From NCBI GenBank assembly GCA_004294135.1, contig RDZY01000016.1, positions 18,036 to 82,035 of the forward strand: DNA of 64,000 nt, written 5' to 3'. Both the position numbers and the translations under genes were made by a program. Shown piece after piece: positions 1-45,272 of the stretch; positions within the stretch are counted from its first letter, which is position 1; each line of letters opens with the position of its first letter. Source of the stretch: Sphingobacteriia bacterium. Its GTDB lineage: Bacteria > Bacteroidota > Bacteroidia > Chitinophagales > Chitinophagaceae. The notes under the pieces are model-generated. The model was not told where the DNA came from. It searched no databases and saw only the letters and a program-made list of their open reading frames with translations.

Positions 1-1071
1 ACTATTTTTCTGTTTGTCAATATTTTTATTGGCCTACTATTTTTAATAGCCTGCCTATCTCCCTATATAAATCCCAACGATATTTGGCTGCACGGATTCA
101 TGTCGCTCATGACTCCCTATTTAATTGTTTTATTAATTTTATTCATCCTACTTTGGTTAATCAGTAATCCAGTTTGGGCATTACTTCCTTTTCTTTGTTT
201 GGTAGTTGGTTTTAAGCAGGTTGCGGTTGTATTTGCGTGGCATGGTAATTCGGGTTACAGCAAAAGAAAATTAGAAAATAATATTCGTATTGTTGACTGG
301 AATGTACAGGGTTTTAATGGATTAACAAAAGACGTAAATGCAAAAAAATTAGTACGCAACGAAGTAGCATCTTCTATTTTAAAAACCCATCCAGATATTA
401 TTTGTCTCCAAGAATTTAATAGTGCTGCATCAGAAAATAATATTGCATTGTTTACGGCTACGCATCCTTTTTATTATTTTTCGGCAGACCATAAAGGAAG
501 GCTGAGTGATTATAAATCGGGATGTATTATTTTTTCTAAATACCCCATCATCAATAGTGGAAAAATAGATTTTCCTTCCGAAGAAAGTTTGATTTACACA
601 GATCTACTTAAAGGGTTAGATACCATTCGCATTTTCACCACCCATTTACAATCGTTTAAATTTAAGCGCGAAGATTACGCAGATATTCAAAAAATTAAAG
701 CATCGGATGAAGCTTCTATTCATGCTTCAATAGGCATTATGAGAAAAATGAAAGCCGCCTACAAAAAAAGAGGTGTACAGACCAATATGGTGGTGAAAGA
801 GCTGGAGAAAAGTCCCTACCCATTTTTAATCTGCGGTGATTTTAATGATGTTCCCAATTCTTATGCCTACTTTAATATACGAGGAGATCGTCAAGACGCT
901 TTCTTAAAAAAGGGTTTTGGTATTGGTAGAAGTTTTATTTCGTTGGCACCTACTTTAAGAATTGACTATATCCTACCCGATAATCACTTTGAAGTGAAAC
1001 AGTTTGACATGATAGATGAGCAGCTCAGCGACCATATCATGCTATTGGCTGATATTCGTTTAAAAAAATAA
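1..1071 (+). CDS. Endonuclease/exonuclease/phosphatase (EEP) family membrane-anchored protein, 5'-partial
   Basis: The frame is open from base 1 (TIFLFVNIFIGLLF...) so the gene starts before the window. EEP motifs WNVQGF, DIICLQE, THLQS, GDFND, RIDYI and SDH are present. Confidence 0.88.
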   Translation, partial: TIFLFVNIFIGLLFLIACLSPYINPNDIWLHGFMSLMTPYLIVLLILFILLWLISNPVWALLPFLCLVVGFKQVAVVFAWHGNSGYSKRKLENNIRIVDWNVQGFNGLTKDVNAKKLVRNEVASSILKTHPDIICLQEFNSAASENNIALFTATHPFYYFSADHKGRLSDYKSGCIIFSKYPIINSGKIDFPSEESLIYTDLLKGLDTIRIFTTHLQSFKFKREDYADIQKIKASDEASIHASIGIMRKMKAAYKKRGVQTNMVVKELEKSPYPFLICGDFNDVPNSYAYFNIRGDRQDAFLKKGFGIGRSFISLAPTLRIDYILPDNHFEVKQFDMIDEQLSDHIMLLADIRLKK

Positions 1072-1073
1072 AA

Positions 1074-1081
1074 TACCTTCG
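1074..1081 (+). promoter_or_regulatory. Bacteroidota -7 promoter element (TACCTTCG) for cysS
   Basis: TAnnTT(T/C)G match ending 5 nt before the cysS ATG at 1087. Confidence 0.6.
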
Positions 1082-1086
1082 CCTTA

Positions 1087-2592
1087 ATGTCGCTGAAAGT
1101 CTATAACTCACTCACCCGTAAAAAAGAAGTTTTTGTGCCGCTTAACCCACCCTATGTGGGAATATATGTATGCGGACCAACCGTAAGTGGTGAGAGCCAC
1201 TTAGGCCATACCCGTCCCTATATTACTTTTGATGTACTGTTTCGCTACTTAACTTACTTAGGTTATAAAGTACGTTATATTCGTAATATTACCGATGCTG
1301 GTCACTTTGAAGAAGAGGGGAGAGAAGCAGAAGATAAAATTAGTACCAAAGCCACGCTGGAAAAGCTAGAACCCATGGAATTGGTGCAGAAATATACCAA
1401 CCTCTTTCATTGGGCAATGAGCCAATTAAACAACCTGCCTCCCAGCATTGAGCCCACCGCAACGGGTCATATTGTAGAGCAGATAGAGATGATTAAAAAA
1501 ATAATAGCCGATGGGTATGCTTATGAATCCAATGGCTCCGTTTATTTTGATGTAGAAAAATACAATACTGATTATTCCGCAAAAAATCAACCCTATGGTA
1601 TTCTCAGTGGAAGGGTATTGGAAGATCAGATTGAAAGTACTAGAGAACTAGACAATCAAGCAGAAAAACGCTATAAAAGCGATTTTGCACTCTGGAAAAA
1701 TGCTCCACCAGAACATATAATGCGCTGGCAAAGTCCCTGGGGCGAAGGATTCCCTGGATGGCATATTGAATGTTCTGCCATGAGTACTAAATACTTAGGA
1801 GAGGAATTTGACATTCATGGGGGAGGTATGGATCTACAGTTTCCGCACCATGAGTGTGAGATTGCGCAAAGCACCGTTTGCAACCATAAAATGCCTGCGC
1901 GTTTTTGGATGCACAATAATATGATTACCATCAACGGAAAAAAGATGGGCAAGAGTTACAACAATGTAATCAAGCTAAGTGAGTTATTCAGCGGCAATCA
2001 TCCTTTGCTTACTCAGGCCTATGCACCATCAACCGTAAGGTTTTTTATTTTACAATCACAGTACAGAAGTCAGCTCGATTTTGGCAATGAAGGATTGCAA
2101 GCCAGTGAAAAAGGGTTGCGCAGAATGATGGAAGCATTTGAGTGGCTGATGGGCGAAAATAATATTGGCAGCATCCAACCTACTGATGATTCACTCAACG
2201 AAAAAGTAGTGAAGTTGGTAGCAGAATTTGATGAATTCATGAATGATGATATGAATACAGCCAAAGTAATTGCCAATATATTTGAATTGGTTCCCATTAT
2301 TAATTCCATTAAAGACAAGCATATAGCAGTAAACGCTCTTAGTACTGATACGGTGGCATTATTAAAAAAGCAATTGCAGCATTTTATTGTAGATATTTTA
2401 GGGTTGCAGACCAGCAAACCTAACCACGACAGTAAACTAGAGGGGGTACTCCAACTACTCATTAATATTCGCAAGGAAGCCAAGAGCAGGAAAGACTTTG
2501 TAACCAGCGATAAAATTAGGAATGAACTGTTAGAACTGGGAGTACAATTGAAAGACGAGAAAGACGGTGAGATGAGTTATACCATTGGTTAA
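1087..2592 (+). CDS. cysS: Cysteine--tRNA ligase
   Basis: YVCGPTV, HLGH (HIGH motif), [27 protein letters not shown] and KMGKS (KMSKS motif). Confidence 0.98.
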
Positions 2593-2612
2593 TAAAGGGT
2601 AGCTTGTACTTA

Positions 2613-3350
2613 TTACGACAGTAATTCCTGTAAAATAGCATAGGTTTTCAGCTTGCCAAAATTAGAAATATGCAGTGATAGATACAGTTGGTATGACTCT
2701 AGTAACTGCCTTCTTATTTGTTGATTAAGTTGAATATTTTCCAGCTCATTGTAAAACGTTAGATTAGAAATATCGGATGTGGTTCTAGCCAATTGTCCCT
2801 CTAAAAAATAAGGATGCAAGGGTTTCTCAGTCACAAATATACCTTCCTGCAAATCTATTATTGGTGTTGAGCTGCTATAATCACCCTGCAATTGAAAGCC
2901 CAGCTCTGCTGCTAAATGTAGGGTAAAATACAGTGGTAAATTTGCGGCTAAGCTTCCATTGGCCTTATCCAATTGTTTCAGCGTATCTTCTATCAAATAA
3001 AATAATTCAGGATTGGCTTCGGGTTGCTTTAAACTATGTTGCAACAATTCCATTACATACATGGCAACGGTATGCTTCACCACATCAAACAAAACAGCTT
3101 GATACATATAGCCCCAGCGGTACTCTTTAATGAATTGCAATTGCTTTAATTCATTGTGGTGTACTTCCAATTCTAAAATAGCAGACGGTTGAAAATAACT
3201 GGCTTTACCAGCAGAAGTCTTGGTGGTTTGTCTTACCCCTTTTACAATGTATTGTTGTATCCCAAATAGTTCGGTATAAATACTGGTAATAATACTGGTA
3301 TCACCATATTTTACAGTACGCAATACAACCCCTCTGGTAGTATGAATCAT
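2613..3350 (-). CDS. recO: DNA repair protein RecO
   Basis: N-terminal TRGVVLRTVKYGDTSII OB-fold start; 245 aa; Bacteroidota RecO pattern. Confidence 0.92.
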   Translation of the reverse strand: MIHTTRGVVLRTVKYGDTSIITSIYTELFGIQQYIVKGVRQTTKTSAGKASYFQPSAILELEVHHNELKQLQFIKEYRWGYMYQAVLFDVVKHTVAMYVMELLQHSLKQPEANPELFYLIEDTLKQLDKANGSLAANLPLYFTLHLAAELGFQLQGDYSSSTPIIDLQEGIFVTEKPLHPYFLEGQLARTTSDISNLTFYNELENIQLNQQIRRQLLESYQLYLSLHISNFGKLKTYAILQELLS

Positions 3351-3379
3351 ATTCTGAGGGTTAAGAAAAGCAATTTGAA

Positions 3380-4162
3380 TTAGGCAATCATTGCTTCGGG
3401 AATATTACTGCCTTTTTCTTTAGGAAGTACCGCAGGAATTAATTGTATAATACCTACTGCGTGTAAACCTCTCATAAAGAAAAAAGTAAGATCAAATTCA
3501 AACCATTTTTTAGCAAAATTAGCATCTTCTTTTGCAAAGTGGTGATTGTTCTGAAACAGTTCGCCCATGAGTAAAATTCCCCATGGTGAGCTATTTTTTG
3601 AGTGATCCCCATTATTGAAATTGCTATACCCATATTTATGCCCGCACCAGTTTACAATGGCTCCTTGAATTGGCCCCATTAAGAAATGTATGGGCAACAA
3701 TAAATACCACCAAGCATTGGGCGCAAAATAATAATAGAAGGTAATATAGCTGGCCATAAAAACAAGACGAGTAATTGGATGGTGTCCGAACTTATCTAGC
3801 TTATCCCATACGGGTAGATAGTCTTTTGTGAATTTAGGATCTGGTAAATTTTTCCCTGTGAGAAAACCCCTAAATATTAAAATGGTACTCTGCATCATCT
3901 GATACACATCTTTAAAAAAATGCGGAGAATGTGGATCTTGCTCCGTATCACTAAATTCATGGTGCATCCGATGCATTACCCCATAAGCCCTGGGTACCAA
4001 ATACGATGATCCTTGCACAAACCAAGTACTGAGATAAAAAAATCTCTCCCAGTTTTTACTGGTTGTATACATTTTATGTGAAGCAAAACGATGCAGAAAA
4101 AATGAATGAAAAAACAAGGATCCGAACCAGTGAAGTGCAAAGAATAGTAAAACAGCAACCAT
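3380..4162 (-). CDS. Acyl-CoA / fatty acid (delta-9-type) desaturase
   Basis: Three His boxes (HRFASH, HRMHH, QNNHH) and hydrophobic segments. Confidence 0.9.
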   Translation of the reverse strand: MVAVLLFFALHWFGSLFFHSFFLHRFASHKMYTTSKNWERFFYLSTWFVQGSSYLVPRAYGVMHRMHHEFSDTEQDPHSPHFFKDVYQMMQSTILIFRGFLTGKNLPDPKFTKDYLPVWDKLDKFGHHPITRLVFMASYITFYYYFAPNAWWYLLLPIHFLMGPIQGAIVNWCGHKYGYSNFNNGDHSKNSSPWGILLMGELFQNNHHFAKEDANFAKKWFEFDLTFFFMRGLHAVGIIQLIPAVLPKEKGSNIPEAMIA

Positions 4163-4249
4163 TGACTAATAATTTAAGTTTCGTAAGATAAGAGATTATA
4201 CAATACACTCAACAATTTTTAGCCGTCTTTAAATAAACTGCTAGATCTG

Positions 4250-5305
4250 TTAAACAACACCCGTAAACTGCTTAAGAAAGCGAATATCATTTTGTGAATA
4301 AAGTCGCAAGTCGTTTACTTGGTACTTTAACTGCGTAATTCTTTCTACTCCCATACCAAAGGCAAAGCCAGTGTATTTATTGGCATCAATACCAAAGTTC
4401 TCCAACACTTTTGGATGCACCATTCCACTTCCCAATATCTCTACCCATCCAGTATGTTTACAAATATTACATCCCTTTCCTGCACAGATTAAACAACTGA
4501 TATCCATTTCTGCGCTGGGTTCTGTAAAGGGAAAATAACTGGGCCTAAACCTCACTTTTACGTCTTTCCCAAACATCTCCTGCACAAAAAAGTAGAGGGT
4601 TTGTTTCAGATCTGCAAAGCTCACATTTTCATCAATATACAATCCCTCTACCTGATGAAAAAAGCAATGTGCGCGCGCACTGATGGTCTCGTTTCTGTAT
4701 ACTTTGCCCGGACAAATTACCCGAATCGGTGGTTTCTGCGTCTCCATTACCCTTGCCTGAACACTGCTGGTATGTGTGCGCAACAGCCAGGTTGGTCCAT
4801 TGCCATCAGTTGGTTTTTTAATATAAAAAGTATCTTGCATATCTCTTGCAGGATGGTCTTCTGGAAGATTCATAGCCCCAAAATTATGCCAGTCGTCTTC
4901 TATTTCTGGCCCCTCTGCTACCGCAAAACCAAGTCGTTTAAAAATAGATACCATTTCATTTTTTACCAAGTTCAGCGGATGTCTGCTACCTACGGAAACC
5001 GAATCACCGGGGAGGGATAAATCATCTTGACTATCAGATCCTGGAAGCTTCAATTTTGTAGTAGTATTATCAACCTGTAAAGCTGCTAACTTGGCTTCTG
5101 CAAAGAGTTTGAATTCATTCAGCAGCAGTCCAAAAGCCTTTTTCTGTTCATTGGGAACCTGCTTTATTTCGCCCATCACTTGCTTTACCAAACCCTTAGT
5201 ACCCAGCCACTTAATACGAAAAATTTCTACATCTTCGGCATTTAAAGCGTTGAAAGCAGCCATTTCAGCCTTATATACTTCTATTTGTTGCAATAAAGAT
5301 TCCAT
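4250..5305 (-). CDS. pheS: Phenylalanine--tRNA ligase alpha subunit
   Basis: HPARDMQDTFY, LLRTHTS, FRPSYFPFTEPSAE and GFAFGMGVER. Confidence 0.98.
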   Translation of the reverse strand: MESLLQQIEVYKAEMAAFNALNAEDVEIFRIKWLGTKGLVKQVMGEIKQVPNEQKKAFGLLLNEFKLFAEAKLAALQVDNTTTKLKLPGSDSQDDLSLPGDSVSVGSRHPLNLVKNEMVSIFKRLGFAVAEGPEIEDDWHNFGAMNLPEDHPARDMQDTFYIKKPTDGNGPTWLLRTHTSSVQARVMETQKPPIRVICPGKVYRNETISARAHCFFHQVEGLYIDENVSFADLKQTLYFFVQEMFGKDVKVRFRPSYFPFTEPSAEMDISCLICAGKGCNICKHTGWVEILGSGMVHPKVLENFGIDANKYTGFAFGMGVERITQLKYQVNDLRLYSQNDIRFLKQFTGVV

Positions 5306-40077: not shown

Positions 40078-40872
40078 ATGAAAAACAATCATGAAATAGA
40101 TTATCGAATTTTTGGAGAGGAAATGCAGTATGTAGAAGTAGAACTAGATTACAATGAGACTGCTGTTGCTGAGCCAGGTGCTTTTATGATGATGGAAGAT
40201 GGAATAGTAATGGAGACTATGTTTGGTGATGGTAGTCAACAAAATACCAGCATATTGGGGAAATTATTAAACGCAGGTAAAAGAGTATTGACAGGTGAAA
40301 GTCTTTTTATGACTGCTTTTACCAATATAAATCAAGGAAAAAGAAGGGTTAGTTTTGCATCCCCTTATCCAGGAAAAATAATTCCAGTGGATTTATCTCG
40401 TTTCAATAACCGAATCATTTGCCAAAAAGATACTTTTCTTTGTGCTGCCAAAGGGGTAAATATTGGTATTGAATTTCAACGAAAACTAGGGACAGGGTTA
40501 TTTGGTGGTGAAGGTTTTATTATGCAGAAATTAGAAGGCGATGGAATGGCCTTTATGCACGCTGGAGGGCATGTATTTGAGAAGCAACTAAACCCAGGCG
40601 AAGTTCTTAAAATTGATACCGGCTGTATTGTTGGCTTCACATCATCTGTTGCCTATGATATACAGTTTGTTGGAGGAATTAAGAATACAATTTTTGGTGG
40701 CGAAGGCTTGTTCTTTGCATTGCTTACTGGACCAGGAACGGTATGGATTCAAAGCTTACCAGTTAGTCGATTGGCGGGTAGAATTTTACAATATGCTACC
40801 GTTCATAGAAAAGAGGAAGGTAGTATATTAGGTGGATTAGGAAATCTTCTTGATGGGGATGGAAAATGGTAA
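40078..40872 (+). CDS. TIGR00266 / AIM24 family protein
   Basis: IFGEEMQYVEVEL, GKR..TGESLFM, LFGGEGFIMQKLEGDG, DTGC, FGGEGLF and WIQSLP. Confidence 0.92.
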   Translation: MKNNHEIDYRIFGEEMQYVEVELDYNETAVAEPGAFMMMEDGIVMETMFGDGSQQNTSILGKLLNAGKRVLTGESLFMTAFTNINQGKRRVSFASPYPGKIIPVDLSRFNNRIICQKDTFLCAAKGVNIGIEFQRKLGTGLFGGEGFIMQKLEGDGMAFMHAGGHVFEKQLNPGEVLKIDTGCIVGFTSSVAYDIQFVGGIKNTIFGGEGLFFALLTGPGTVWIQSLPVSRLAGRILQYATVHRKEEGSILGGLGNLLDGDGKW

Positions 40873-41550
40873 TCATTCAAATTCATGAGGATCATACAAC
40901 CTATTTTTTACTGCATAAACAACAAGACCTGCTGAATTTTTAGCATAGGTTTTGTTGTATAATATTTCTCGATAGCTTTCAACAGTCCTTATACCAATTC
41001 TAAGCTTTTTTGCAATTTCTTTATTACTAAACTGCTTACAAATAAGTATTAACACTTCTATTTCTCTTTCAGTTAAATCAATTGCGCTATTTTTTCTATG
41101 CGGATGATAACGGTTATTTGAAATTAAGTAGGTTAATTTTTTTTCGATAGAATTACAGTAATAGCTTCTACCTTCATGTACTGCTACTGCTGCTCTTAGC
41201 AATTCTTGTCGATTTGTATTTTTAAGTAAGTAACCACTAGCACCAGCACCAAGCATTGAAACAATTAAGTCATCATCATTAAACATAGAAAGTGCTATAA
41301 TCTTGGTTTTTAAGTTAGCCAATCGCAATTGCTTACAAAATTCTATTCCGTTCATTTTTGGCATCTGTATGTCTACAAATACAATATCAAGAAATTCAGT
41401 TTTACAAAGTTTTAAAAGTTCAATTCCGTTTTCAGCATCGCCTAGCAACTGCATTTCTGGTTGATCTTTTAGTAATAATTTAAACCCATTCCTAAAAATT
41501 TCATGGTCATCTGCTATGGCAATTCTAATTGGATTTTGTAGGTAATTCAT
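40873..41550 (-). CDS. NarL/LuxR family response regulator
   Basis: IAIADDH, phospho-acceptor in VFVDIQMP, GASGYLLK; LTEREIEVL..IA..L.I..RTVESYR HTH. Confidence 0.95.
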   Translation of the reverse strand: MNYLQNPIRIAIADDHEIFRNGFKLLLKDQPEMQLLGDAENGIELLKLCKTEFLDIVFVDIQMPKMNGIEFCKQLRLANLKTKIIALSMFNDDDLIVSMLGAGASGYLLKNTNRQELLRAAVAVHEGRSYYCNSIEKKLTYLISNNRYHPHRKNSAIDLTEREIEVLILICKQFSNKEIAKKLRIGIRTVESYREILYNKTYAKNSAGLVVYAVKNRLYDPHEFE

Positions 41551-42296
41551 TTTATTGGAATTTCAATGGTTAGAATTGTTCCTTTCCCTTTTTCAGAATA
41601 TAGATAGAAAATACCATTCATTAAATCAGTTCTATTTTGAATGCTACTGAATCCTCTTCCTGTATATGGTTCAACTTCATTGCTTACATTAAATCCTATG
41701 CCGTCATCTGAGCAAACAAGTACCAGCTTTTTTTTATACTCACTAAATATAATTTTCATTTGTCGAGCCTTAGCATGTTTGAAAACATTATTCACTGCCT
41801 CTTGAACAATTCGAAAAATCTGAATTGCTTGATTTTTGTCCATTGTTAGCAATGGAGGATAACTAAAAAATATCTGCAACGGATTAGATTGTTCCAGTGA
41901 ATAAATTAATTCTTGTATTGCCGCAAATGCTCCTTTTCGCTCTAAGATTGTTGGTAAGAGGTTATTCGATATTTCTCTAAGCTTCATCAGTATTTCATCT
42001 AGTTGATCGCTCGCATTTAAGAGGTATGAAAATTGATTTTTAGAACTATAAATGGCATTCCCAAGTTGAAATTTAATTACTGATAAAATTGGGCCAAGGT
42101 CGTCATGCAAATCAGATGCTATTCTAGCTCTTTCTTTTTCCATTGCATTAATTCCTGCTAAGGAATTTGCCTTTCGTAATTCTAGGTTTGTATGCTGTTG
42201 TTGAATAATTAATACTGCTAAGAAAAAAATAATTGCACCCACCAATGCTATTGCAATGAGTATTGAAAAGTACATTTTTGCTTCTTTGGCATCCAT
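41547..42296 (-). CDS. HisKA_3 histidine kinase with a single TM helix and no sensor domain
   Basis: ERARIASDLHDDLG H-box, RIVQEAVNN..KHA N-box, SDDGIGF and GKGT; ATGA overlap with the regulator. Confidence 0.93.
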   Translation of the reverse strand: MDAKEAKMYFSILIAIALVGAIIFFLAVLIIQQQHTNLELRKANSLAGINAMEKERARIASDLHDDLGPILSVIKFQLGNAIYSSKNQFSYLLNASDQLDEILMKLREISNNLLPTILERKGAFAAIQELIYSLEQSNPLQIFFSYPPLLTMDKNQAIQIFRIVQEAVNNVFKHAKARQMKIIFSEYKKKLVLVCSDDGIGFNVSNEVEPYTGRGFSSIQNRTDLMNGIFYLYSEKGKGTILTIEIPIK

Positions 42297-42910
42297 AATA
42301 TGACTATTACATAAAAGATATTGGTTACTAAATTTACATAAACATTGATTCTGTGCAACTGAATTCGAAAAATTTTGCTGGAATTAAGCCCATTAATCCA
42401 AAAAATTTCTACTATTGCTTTAGAAGTATAAAAGAATATCAGGCTAATACAAGCAATAAAAATATGATTCTGGGCTAATTTTTGACCCTTTTTTGATACA
42501 ACTGATCTAATTGAGTGTATACTCATCAGTATAATCAATAAGCTAAAAATCACTCTAGAATAACCATTAAAAATATAAAAAGAGGAAAAAATAAAATTCT
42601 CATATATCCAAAAAAGTGCAATGCTCAGCGCTAAAAATAAAAAGAAATTTTTTTTATCTGAGAAAAGATTCCAGCACTTGAACTGATACAACAATATTAC
42701 TGTAGAAAACAAAACATAAATATTGCTATTGATTACATTGGTATGATACAAACTTATAAAAATTGTAGATAAAATTTCATTGATAAAACCCAGCCATAAA
42801 AATAAAATGAAAGGATAATTAGCCTGATGAATGGTTCTAATTTTTATCAAGCCAATTATTGCAGCAATCCCTATTAAATAGGCTAAAAATTCGGTTAGTT
42901 TATAGTTCAT
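42248..42910 (-). CDS. Hypothetical seven-TM membrane protein
   Basis: Seven hydrophobic segments by eye in 220 aa; polar residues in TM2/TM3 (NE, NSNIY). Confidence 0.8.
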   Translation of the reverse strand: MNYKLTEFLAYLIGIAAIIGLIKIRTIHQANYPFILFLWLGFINEILSTIFISLYHTNVINSNIYVLFSTVILLYQFKCWNLFSDKKNFFLFLALSIALFWIYENFIFSSFYIFNGYSRVIFSLLIILMSIHSIRSVVSKKGQKLAQNHIFIACISLIFFYTSKAIVEIFWINGLNSSKIFRIQLHRINVYVNLVTNIFYVIVILWMPKKQKCTFQYSLQ

Positions 42911-42927
42911 TATTTACATAAGTATTA

Positions 42928-43287
42928 CTAGGAATTTAATGAAGAACTTGGGGGACAATCATCTGGGCATCTTCGCGAATCATTCCATAAATAAGGATCT
43001 GCTTCTAATGAGATAACTGAATCTGCTGGAGGAAGTATGTCTTGGTCGGCATCATTAACGGCCACCAAAATTGCATGTACTTTAAACCCGTCGTCCATTC
43101 CATAGTAGATTCTAAGTTTTTCACAACCTGACTTTGCCAACAAATCCTCTATACTTTTTCGACTAAATGTTTCACAAGTAGCTAAAATTTTCTTTCCCTG
43201 AAATGCTTGCGCTATGATTTGTTCTTTTTGAATTCTGTAGAAACTAGTCATTTTAATACCCTGTTGAAGTGAAATTGGTTTACTCAT
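42928..43287 (-). CDS. Hypothetical 119-aa protein with RIYYG motif and C-terminal CPDDCP
   Basis: ATG at 43287 follows an A-rich leader; no signal peptide; 17 nt upstream of the 7TM gene. Confidence 0.8.
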   Translation of the reverse strand: MSKPISLQQGIKMTSFYRIQKEQIIAQAFQGKKILATCETFSRKSIEDLLAKSGCEKLRIYYGMDDGFKVHAILVAVNDADQDILPPADSVISLEADPYLWNDSRRCPDDCPPSSSLNS

Positions 43288-43343
43288 TGTGTTGTTTTTT
43301 ATTGATTGAATAAAGCAAGTTGCGAAAAATTTAATATACATAT

Positions 43344-43361
43344 CCCCGTATTAATACGGGG
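43344..43361. promoter_or_regulatory. Perfect 18-bp palindrome CCCCGTATTAATACGGGG, putative operator
   Basis: Exactly self-complementary, no loop, GC-rich in an AT-rich spacer upstream of the four-gene operon. Confidence 0.6.
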
Positions 43362-43406
43362 GTACTTGGGTATTAAGACTATTTATAATAAGTAAATTCA
43401 GGTATT

Positions 43407-43784
43407 TTATCCGTTCAGCTTCAAATATTTCTCGAGTAAAGTCTGGTGTTTTTCAAGTAATTCGTAGTACCGAAACTTCCACTCATCTATATATTTTGCA
43501 GCTTCTTCAAGGGTTTGCGGAGGTGTTTCAGTCAAGTAGAAGTTACTCGGCTCTTTTACAAAATTCTCGAGTAATTCGGGAAAGTATATACTCAGATCTA
43601 CGTGTAAAATTTTTCCGTAATTTAATAAAATATCAATGGGTAGTTCCGGATCATTGATATGATTGTAGTAGCTTGATCTGCTGTAACCGGCTTTTCTTAC
43701 CAAGTTGGTTATAGACATGCCAGCACTAGCTACAACTTGTTGCAGCAATTCACCTCTATGAAATTTTTTATTATTTTTTTTCAA
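43407..43784 (-). CDS. XRE/Cro-like HTH protein with C-terminal coiled coil
   Basis: HRGELLQQVV..SITNLVRKAGYSRSSYYNH HTH-like segment; WKFRYYELLEKHQTLLE heptads; TTG start. Confidence 0.72.
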   Translation of the reverse strand: MKKNNKKFHRGELLQQVVASAGMSITNLVRKAGYSRSSYYNHINDPELPIDILLNYGKILHVDLSIYFPELLENFVKEPSNFYLTETPPQTLEEAAKYIDEWKFRYYELLEKHQTLLEKYLKLNG

Positions 43785-44123
43785 TTCAGTAAAGGAATAA
43801 ACAATATTGATTAAATAAATGGGCTAAAAACTAGCTTATTTGTACATTTATGATTAATTAAATAATCATTTATGTATAAATATAGAAAACTCTACCACCT
43901 TGAGTGGTTTAAAAGCAGTCACCCATCAACAAATCTTATTCCAAAAAATGCAATTCATTTCATTCTTACGTTTCTACTTAAGCAAATGCTAGCAGATAGA
44001 AAAGTGACTGGTTTAAAGAGGCAGGCAAAACATCCAAATTTTTTATTCAACTATTACAAGGCCTTTCAAATACACAAACGGCTTTTGAATAGCGGTAAAA
44101 TATGCATTAATAGGTAGTATAAA

Positions 44124-45272
44124 TTATAAGAAGCGCAATTTTTTCACTGCTTTTTCAAGGGTTTCTTCTTTTTTTGCAAAACAAAATCGGAGTACTTTAT
44201 TATCTTCTCCATTTTTATAGAAAACTGAAATCGGAATACTTGCAATACCATATTCTTTGGTGAGTTTGATAGCCAATTCCTTATCCCCCTCTTTACTGAA
44301 TCCTTCATAACTGTAACACTCAAAATAACTACCATGAGATGGGATACATTTAAAAGGTGTATCATTCATTAACTGTCTAAAAAAATCTCTTTTGGATTGT
44401 AAAAAACTACCCAATGATAAATAAACTTCTTTATTTTGAAGATAAGCCGCCAAGGCAACCTGTTTGGGTGTATCACAACTAAAGCAATTGTATTGGTGAA
44501 TTTTTCTAAACTCTTTCATTAGGTAATCTGGTGCTATACAGTAGCCCAATTTCCAGCCAGTACAGTGGTAGGTTTTACCAAAGGAAAAACATACAAAGCT
44601 TCTGGAGAATAATTCAGGATAGCGTAAAATACTTTGGTGTTGGTGTCCATCAAATATTAAATGCTCATATACCTCATCACTTAAAATAATAATATTGGTA
44701 TTAGCTACCAATACTGATAGTTGTTGCATATCAGCTTTTCCTAATATTGATCCCGTTGGATTGTGGGGAGAATTAATCATGATCATTCTTGTACGAGAAT
44801 TTATTTTTGCTTTTACCTCGTCCCAAGGAATAGAATAGTCCGGATATTTCAATGAAATTAATACTGGCACTGCTCCATTCAATTCAATAGTAGGAATATA
44901 GCAGTCATAAGCAGGCTCAAACACAATAACTTCGTCTCCTTTTTTCAACACGGTAGTAAGCGCCGTATAAATAGCATAAGTGCCTCCAGGTGTTACCGTT
45001 ATTTCATTTTCTGGACTGATTTCTGAGCCGTATAATGCAATCGATTTTTGTGCTATTGCCACTCTCAATGCAGACAATCCATGCATATGTGCATACTGAT
45101 TATTTCCATCTTGCATGGCTTTATTTACCAGCATTATTAAATCATTACTCATACTAAAATCAGGAAAGCCTTGTCCAAGATTAACCGCACCGTATTCGGC
45201 TGCAAGCTGACTCATAACGGTAAAAATAGTAGTGCCAACCGAAGGCAATTTAGAATCTAATGATAGATGCAC
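44124..45272 (-). CDS. Methionine aminotransferase (YbdL-like, class I/II PLP enzyme)
   Basis: SKLPSVGTTIFTVMS, NLGQGFPDF, NSPHNPTG, SDEVYEH and SFGKTYHCTGWKLG. Confidence 0.93.
   Translation of the reverse strand: MHLSLDSKLPSVGTTIFTVMSQLAAEYGAVNLGQGFPDFSMSNDLIMLVNKAMQDGNNQYAHMHGLSALRVAIAQKSIALYGSEISPENEITVTPGGTYAIYTALTTVLKKGDEVIVFEPAYDCYIPTIELNGAVPVLISLKYPDYSIPWDEVKAKINSRTRMIMINSPHNPTGSILGKADMQQLSVLVANTNIIILSDEVYEHLIFDGHQHQSILRYPELFSRSFVCFSFGKTYHCTGWKLGYCIAPDYLMKEFRKIHQYNCFSCDTPKQVALAAYLQNKEVYLSLGSFLQSKRDFFRQLMNDTPFKCIPSHGSYFECYSYEGFSKEGDKELAIKLTKEYGIASIPISVFYKNGEDNKVLRFCFAKKEETLEKAVKKLRFL

Follow-up and report, generated by a model that had tools for sequence, protein, structure and literature searches.

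How a histidine kinase without a sensory domain receives its signal is a long-standing question, and it has been answered for only a few systems with accessory proteins (Sae, Lia, Bce, Uhp). The question arises at a compact gene cluster on contig RDZY01000016.1 of a Sphingobacteriia bacterium, which we analysed within a 64,000-nt stretch of that contig (the window, to which all coordinates refer unless another contig or locus is named). Here a kinase (HK) with a single transmembrane (TM) helix is encoded between a stand-alone protein of seven TM helices (7TM) and a NarL-type response regulator (RR), and the 7TM gene is preceded by a gene for a small cysteine-tailed protein (SM). An initial annotation had listed five minus-strand open reading frames (ORFs), counting a helix-turn-helix (HTH) gene as the fifth, and proposed a peptide-sensing cassette. 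All five appear in an ORF listing exactly where it had placed them, and its spacings are exact: 17 nt between the SM and 7TM genes, a 49-nt overlap of the 7TM and HK genes, which are read in different frames, and a 4-nt overlap (ATGA) of the HK and RR genes. The module is an undescribed two-component system that includes auxiliary membrane proteins and draws on two uncharacterised families; as had been anticipated, no family, structure or paper describing such a system was found in Pfam, NCBIfam, PDB and literature searches. We favour, with moderate confidence, reading it as an accessory-protein-dependent sensor kinase for which the 7TM protein and SM do the sensing.

The two-component part is readily placed. 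The NarL/LuxR-type RR (40873..41550, minus strand; 225 aa) has a receiver domain (Response_reg, PF00072, 1.2e-25, 90.2 bits) and a GerE HTH domain (PF00196, 5.7e-12, 45.5 bits). HK (41547..42296, minus strand; 249 aa) matches HisKA_3 (PF07730) over residues 55-116 with 32.5 bits against a cut-off of 24, and HATPase_c (PF02518) over residues 157-248 with 41.4 bits against 26.4; its H-box, ..DLHDDLGP.., lies at residue 64. Both proteins fall below every NCBIfam equivalog cut-off (e.g., MctR 138.7 against 300, MctS 106.3 against 700), and the best kinase matches (MctS, UhpB, LiaS) span the catalytic core only, far under their cut-offs. The pair is a NarL/HisKA_3-class two-component system outside the named equivalogs such as NarL, UhpA, LiaS and MctS. 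The kinase had been called sensor-less, and this description is accurate: ahead of the H-box there are only a stub of 8 residues, a single hydrophobic helix (about residues 9-31) and some 30 further residues, and Pfam finds no HAMP, PAS or other input domain. As the outer stub and the single helix run almost straight into the HisKA_3 helix, HK has no domain of its own for ligand sensing. The N-terminal motif itself, MDxxExxIY followed by the TM helix, is kept in 35 orthologues.

The company that this kinase keeps is highly constant. Three other genomes of the genus carry SM, 7TM, HK and RR in the same order, with a 7TM/HK overlap of 37-40 nt and the HK/RR ATGA overlap. Scanning species-representative genomes with the SM alignment gave 38 loci, nearly all labelled Chitinophagaceae or its genera (Sediminibacterium, Ferruginibacter, Terrimonas, Niabella, Flavisolibacter, Flaviaesturariibacter). 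Synteny holds across them: all four genes are present in that order in about 33 of the 38, RR is the last gene of the operon in 33, and the 7TM and HK genes overlap by 37-49 nt in most. Across the phylum, 401 Bacteroidota genomes sampled evenly were searched with the 7TM profile, which matched 30 of them, from 25 of 178 genera, other classes included; the gene directly upstream matches the SM profile (E 1e-5 to 1e-10) in nearly all the loci fetched, and behind the 7TM gene at least 26 of the 30 encode a kinase whose only TM helix is N-terminal. In 21 of these loci the kinase immediately downstream is related to HK by phmmer, and five more that were inspected, in other classes, encode a kinase in which a PAS domain joins the single N-terminal TM helix, a HisKA domain of the classical type and an ATPase domain. 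That the association of SM, 7TM and single-TM kinase survives a change of kinase class is the strongest argument for the three proteins working together. The core of the module is thus a conserved operon of four genes, SM-7TM-HK-RR. The 7TM protein had been proposed as a receptor that docks on the kinase helix, and of this proposal the partnership stands: adjacency, gene overlap and persistence across kinase classes, all of them comparative evidence, mark it as an obligate partner of the sensor-less kinase. Receptor function and docking belong to the model discussed below.

Could the 7TM and HK ORFs instead be halves of one gene for a fused multi-TM kinase, broken by a frameshift or an assembly error? 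A 49-nt overlap of ORFs in different frames is unusual, and this is what brings the idea to mind. A similar split and overlap is conserved in dozens of independent genomes, which excludes a frameshifted gene; moreover, the 7TM profile matches 2982 representative proteins at E<=1e-3, of which the best 150 are all stand-alone and about 215-220 aa long, and HK has its own start motif, MDxxE. We therefore give this explanation next to no credence. A second alternative is that SM and 7TM form an independent unit, e.g., a membrane enzyme or transporter with a soluble partner, that is merely regulated by the two-component system. Loci in which SM stands alone (L012, L050), or with 7TM and no adjacent kinase (L021, L073), speak in its favour. 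The 37-49 nt overlap in most loci and the pairing with two kinase classes argue the other way, as do partner kinases without any other input domain and a 7TM model that resembles generic 7TM bundles only, with no catalytic-type motif conserved; we consider the independent unit very unlikely.

Departures from the standard arrangement occur in both directions. The orphan SM genes of L012 (5687-6456) and L050 (5950-7891) lack 7TM, kinase and regulator; one and a small XRE-like HTH gene are transcribed divergently, and the other overlaps a 511-aa gene. Conversely, L016, from a metagenome-assembled genome of a Sphingobacteriia bacterium with an AIM24/RND flank like that of the window, encodes at 214-4532 a 7TM, an SM, a 7TM, an SM fragment, a 7TM, one kinase and one regulator, and its last 7TM gene does not overlap the kinase gene. 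Tandem 7TM genes are also seen in L064 and L076. In L065 and L070, from another Bacteroidota class, an extra short gene for a TM helix and a PAS domain lies between 7TM and a full TM-PAS-HisKA kinase, and may be a truncated paralogue of the kinase's input region.

What kind of protein is the 7TM partner? The 220-aa product (42248..42910, minus strand) belongs to an unnamed family, with no match among PDB sequences and none in Pfam or NCBIfam, where distant homologues were scanned too. Its AlphaFold2 model (pLDDT 91.9) has seven long helices, the first one broken, and the positive-inside rule, read from the sequence, places the N-terminus outside and the C-terminus inside. In the alignment E168 is invariant and P33, E45, N63, W101, N193 and N197 are near-invariant; all of these except P33 sit in the outer half of the bundle in a pocket-like cluster. 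No Cys, His or catalytic-type motif is conserved. The nearest Foldseek folds are generic 7TM bundles such as G-protein-coupled receptors (GPCRs), proteorhodopsins/rhodopsins and adiponectin receptors, at TM-score <= 0.6 and E >= 0.13; the PDB matches of the model include no transporter or enzyme fold.

Two candidate identities, a rhodopsin and an AgrB-like peptidase, were considered and rejected. Sensory rhodopsins offer a parallel: sensory rhodopsin II is a stand-alone 7TM receptor that docks on the TM helices of HtrII, a transducer controlling a histidine kinase, and Anabaena sensory rhodopsin is co-encoded with a small soluble transducer of about 14 kDa. The protein studied here likewise stands alone, with proteorhodopsins and GPCRs among its nearest bundles (TM-score 0.5-0.6). 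However, the Foldseek matches are not significant (E >= 0.13; for rhodopsins E >= 0.38), there is no PDB sequence match, TM7 has no retinal-binding Lys, and the contact with the kinase is proposed to be direct, not via an MCP-like transducer and CheA. An AgrB-like peptidase was dismissed on the lack of any conserved Cys or His. The bacterial 7TM modules of the 7TMR-DISM family (PF07695) are also coupled to outputs that include histidine kinases, but here there is no extracellular DISMED domain and the 7TM is not fused to its output; the window's protein does not match the family, and one distant homologue scores no more than 13.4 bits (E 0.072), below the gathering score of 29.

The third protein of the association, SM, is encoded at 42928..43287 on the minus strand. 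Its start is the ATG at 43287; an in-frame ATG upstream at 43341, which would give a 137-aa ORF, is not conserved and is out of frame in the closest relative, and SM is for this reason taken as 119 aa long. It has no match among PDB sequences and none in Pfam or NCBIfam, the latter two scanned with distant homologues as well. A confident AlphaFold model (pLDDT 88.5) shows an alpha/beta fold without counterpart in the PDB, and the Cys tail packs onto the folded core. This C-terminal tail, RCPxxCPPxSxLN, is the most invariant segment of the alignment and nearly unchanged across genera; in distant SM-like proteins it becomes CPP[FYW]C, and two of these have VPPWP or NPPYP in its place, without either tail cysteine. 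A Zn(Cys3His) site formed by C55, H71, C107 and C111 was rejected as a universal feature of SM: H71 and C55 are not conserved in distant homologues, two of which also lack the tail cysteines.

The initial annotation had taken SM to be a peptide ligand or its precursor, and several features of the locus do recall quorum sensing, in which the Cys loop would be cleaved off, or SM released, as extracellular ligand of the 7TM receptor. As in Agr (AgrBDCA) and ComCDE, one locus combines a small gene with genes for a polytopic membrane protein, a kinase and a regulator, behind a promoter that is probably autoinduced. The 7TM pocket faces outward, SM-7TM pairs are duplicated together in L016, and the tail is a short proline-rich loop in which a disulfide is possible. 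The details are nevertheless hard to fit. Agr and ComCDE have a receptor fused to an HPK10-type kinase, a LytTR regulator, a short variable precursor and a dedicated peptidase or exporter, none of which is found here. Pheromones diverge, whereas the SM tail hardly changes across genera, and the supposed leader of about 100 residues is a conserved, well-folded domain with the tail packed against it. SM has neither a signal peptide nor a cleavage motif, double-glycine or other; genes for an exporter or a protease are missing from the loci and their surroundings, and the 7TM has no conserved His or Cys for an AgrB-like peptidase site. Many SM homologues are lipoproteins and hence anchored, not diffusible. 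The ligand claim is not supported by this comparison, and quorum sensing by a processed or released peptide is, in our judgement, highly improbable. SM looks like a folded accessory subunit of a 7TM/kinase complex and not like a pheromone precursor.

Where this subunit resides appears to differ between clades. Sec or lipoprotein signals are clear in about half of the distant SM-like proteins (e.g., ...VFA|QS, ...FVGC), which suggests stable subunits and not diffusible signals; an export signal is absent from the remaining ones and from SM throughout the window's clade. SM of the window's Chitinophagaceae clade is probably cytoplasmic. Loop charges, read by eye, give an identical predicted 7TM topology in clades with periplasmic SM and in those where SM is apparently cytoplasmic. 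In the explanation that we favour, the rigid C-terminal CPxxC/PP loop would be the conserved functional tip of SM. One could go further and regard the 7TM as a GPCR-like receptor for that loop, which would be a ligand tethered in the periplasm wherever SM has a signal peptide and, in the signal-less Chitinophagaceae clade, would reach the receptor only when SM is released from damaged or lysed kin cells. We hold this to be distinctly improbable; if true, it would amount to a phylum-wide pathway of protein ligand, 7TM receptor and single-TM kinase by which kin or damage is sensed.

How might the operon itself be controlled? An 18-bp perfect palindrome, CCCCGTATTAATACGGGG, lies at 43344..43361, i.e., -74 to -57 from the SM start codon, and is a probable operator of the NarL-type regulator. 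Of 38 upstream regions of orthologues, 22 contain its core, CGTA-N4-TACG, at >=7/8 positions, compared with 24 of 737 control windows. In most loci the palindrome falls about 57-80 nt ahead of SM, and the sites mostly start 71-81 nt before the SM ATG; other lineages have different palindromes in the same position. About 22 nt downstream of the palindrome, AA[ACT]TTG-like boxes were noted by eye at the same relative position in many of these regions. In the window this box is AACTTGC (43315..43321, minus strand), a candidate for the -7 promoter element of Bacteroidota, which it resembles, and on that assignment the palindrome would be centred at about -40 from the likely transcription start.

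Similar palindromes of the CCGTA-N4-TACGG type stand just upstream of two orphan NarL-type RR genes elsewhere in the same genome (C12:29197 and C4:22356/22380), and ACGTAAAAATACGT palindromes are found upstream of the first gene of a paralogous module on contig C8 and in the neighbouring divergent promoter region. This makes the NarL-type regulator the likeliest protein to bind there and autoregulation of the operon probable; the pattern suggests that CCGTA-N4-TACGG is a family-wide autoregulatory operator. The XRE-type HTH protein encoded upstream is a less likely binder, since most loci lack its gene. At C12 the promoter region with the palindrome is divergent and also serves a gene whose secreted product is DUF1080-like as judged from sequence alone. 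A regulon prediction from the palindrome was attempted and dropped: the exact 14-mer occurs only twice in the genome, and a relaxed motif 12 times, which is not above a rough chance estimate of about 30 (our own estimate, not computed by a tool).

Kinases that depend on a separate membrane protein provide a frame for these observations. In LiaF-LiaS, BceAB-BceS and UhpC-UhpB, HisKA_3-class or intramembrane-sensing kinases are fed by such a protein, and NarL-type regulators (LiaR, UhpA) are found among these systems. The partners there are LiaF, an ABC transporter and a sensor of the major facilitator superfamily, whereas here they are a 7TM protein and SM without any family match. With a negligible outer portion, no input domain and a conserved co-encoded membrane protein, HK appears to fit the intramembrane-sensing kinases that work with accessory proteins. 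The closest described layout is saePQRS of Staphylococcus aureus, in which the lipoprotein SaeP, the 4-TM protein SaeQ and the intramembrane-sensing kinase SaeS form a ternary complex and SaeR is the regulator; SaeP and SaeQ switch on the phosphatase activity of SaeS, and an autoinduced promoter precedes the first accessory gene (PMC5083920). In both systems, four genes are involved, the gene of a sensor-less kinase comes after those for a polytopic membrane protein and a small protein, extracytoplasmic or soluble, and a promoter with regulator sites (candidate ones here) lies before the first accessory gene; many SM homologues in other Bacteroidota are, like SaeP, lipoproteins. The differences are equally clear. 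The membrane protein has seven TM helices against the four of SaeQ, the kinase has one TM helix and a HisKA_3 domain where SaeS has two and a HisKA domain, and the regulator is NarL-type where SaeR is OmpR-type. Kinase and regulator genes are in reversed order, and SM of the window lacks a lipoprotein signal. No sequence relationship was detected: SM and 7TM fall outside all Pfam and NCBIfam families, and Pfam, NCBIfam and PDB sequence searches show no homology to SaeP/SaeQ, LiaF or BceAB.

This likeness also accommodates a reading without any accessory sensor. The TM helix of HK could itself sense a membrane property, as the TM helix of DesK does, while SM and 7TM, induced by the phosphorylated regulator, would perceive no signal and would switch the kinase to phosphatase activity and so reset the system. 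HK does resemble a minimal single-TM HisKA_3 sensor, its TM helix running into the helix of the dimerisation and histidine phosphotransfer (DHp) domain, and the layout, with accessory genes first behind a promoter that carries a candidate regulator site, is that of saePQRS (PMC5083920). On the other hand, conserved pocket-like polar residues in the outer half of the 7TM would be needless in a pure scaffold, the triad is kept with a PAS-containing kinase class, and the 7TM/HK gene overlap argues for roughly equal production and not for an induced excess of accessory protein. We regard feedback alone as unlikely.

Our preferred reading remains that of an accessory-protein-dependent sensor kinase. 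In it, the 7TM would drive the single-TM kinase by helix-helix contact in the membrane, SM would be a folded subunit of the resulting complex, and signalling would run from 7TM to kinase; the phosphorylated NarL-type regulator would then bind CCGTA-N4-TACGG, centred some 40 bp before the presumed transcription start, and control its own operon. We count in its favour the duplication of SM and 7TM as a unit before one HK-RR pair in L016 and the tandem 7TMs of L064 and L076, the conserved MDxxExxIY stub, the outer-half polar residues of the 7TM, the SM fold with its docked tail, the conserved palindrome and the saePQRS precedent (PMC5083920). It also should be considered that several observations weigh against it. 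An SM domain that is exported in some clades and signal-less here is hard to square with one fixed docking face on the 7TM, and the loci with SM alone, or with SM and 7TM and no kinase, do not show the full association. The palindrome could be bound by a different regulator instead, and the relaxed motif, as noted above, is no more frequent than the rough chance estimate. Finally, no target genes indicate a physiological role: of 41 loci, an AraC-type regulator neighbours the module in 11, SusD in 10, SusC in 7 and a TlpA-like protein in 6, each a minority, and neighbour-gene enrichment across loci gave no consistent functional theme.

The remaining gene of the original five, encoding a Cro/C1-like HTH protein of 125 aa (43407..43784, minus strand), stands apart from this core. 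Its match to Pfam HTH_26 is below the cut-off (E 0.0029) and there is no NCBIfam match. It had been counted as a fifth member, which its distribution contradicts: it is present in 4 of about 41 loci, and the family often occurs elsewhere without the module. Homologues adjoin the module only in L014, L008/9 and L010/11; the closest relative has the gene with its module, and two further lineages have it on the other strand, downstream. The family is found in 12 of 151 family genomes. Among 12 other loci fetched, three have a HisKA_3 kinase and/or NarL-type RR gene beside it and the rest have none within 1.5 kb; one homologue sits beside an orphan NarL RR gene at the syntenic site in genome G010. 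The HTH gene is a facultative neighbour and not a core component.

That syntenic site, between the genes for methionine aminotransferase and AIM24 (window 40872-44124, compared with L095, L096 and L097), is an insertion/deletion hotspot within the genus. The module occupies it in the window, L014, G018, G007 and L016; in G019 it is empty, with 86 nt between the flanking genes, in G010 it holds the orphan NarL-type regulator and HTH homologue, and in G353 an unrelated 173-aa gene. Within the genus, the 7TM was found in no more than 4 of 25 genomes. The module has the character of accessory DNA that varies from strain to strain, and its low GC content is in keeping with this. The AT-richness reported initially is real: module GC is 0.313 against a genome mean of 0.375 (standard deviation 0.022), and only 0.8% of 2.9-kb windows genome-wide are as low. 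Much of this is accounted for by the 7TM gene, with its very hydrophobic product, at 0.265. The assembly that holds the window comprises 2.6 Mb in 51 contigs. The locus was found in microbial-mat and freshwater metagenomes; no transcript evidence was found, the sequencing runs with the locus being DNA metagenomes only.

Two further modules of a similar plan exist in this genome. One, at C10:19684-22279, encodes a 164-aa lipoprotein, a 7TM of 219 aa that the 7TM profile matches at E 3.9e-8, a single-TM kinase of 260 aa, with a gene overlap of 37 nt, and a 217-aa NarL-type regulator. The other, at the contig end C8:1-3600, encodes a 263-aa protein ending in LCPPKEC, a 218-aa 7TM (E 2e-4), a single-TM kinase and the start of a regulator gene. 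The C10 lipoprotein has an SM-like sequence pattern without the Cys tail. Homology to SM is not established for either first protein: hhalign gives weak hits only, with E 0.15 for the C10 lipoprotein, which is not significant, and 0.039 for the C8 protein, and a broadened hidden Markov model missed both. In both modules, neither the protein in the SM position nor the 7TM falls in a Pfam or NCBIfam family.

Other genes recur around the module. AraC-type HTH genes (110-322 aa) lie directly upstream (divergent) or downstream in L018, L019, L020, L027, L028, L029, L032, L034, L039, L041 and L046, so that, with the XRE-type HTH of the window's clade, a second DNA-binding protein is often encoded beside the module. 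In two same-genus genomes (L005 1279-5455, L006 2708-3575) mutually paralogous small secreted proteins flank it (one of 139 aa, two of 112 aa). G018 also has near its module a 1243-aa protein that resembles cargo of the type IX secretion system (T9SS) by sequence, and an 870-aa T9SS cargo protein is encoded upstream of the module in L010. Such secreted and T9SS cargo neighbours may be a hint at the regulon, or coincidence.

What the locus adds to the question posed at the outset is a conserved triad in which two unnamed families, the 7TM with about 3000 representative sequences and SM with a fold that has no PDB match, are joined to two classes of single-TM kinase. Cultured carriers are available (Terrimonas ferruginea DSM 30193, Niabella aurantiaca DSM 17617, Terrimonas pollutisoli) and, with the candidate operator as a ready reporter, make the system directly testable. 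The SM domain, exported in some clades and apparently cytoplasmic in others, provides an unusual and informative natural experiment, and it does so within a triad that is present in about 7% of the sampled Bacteroidota genomes.

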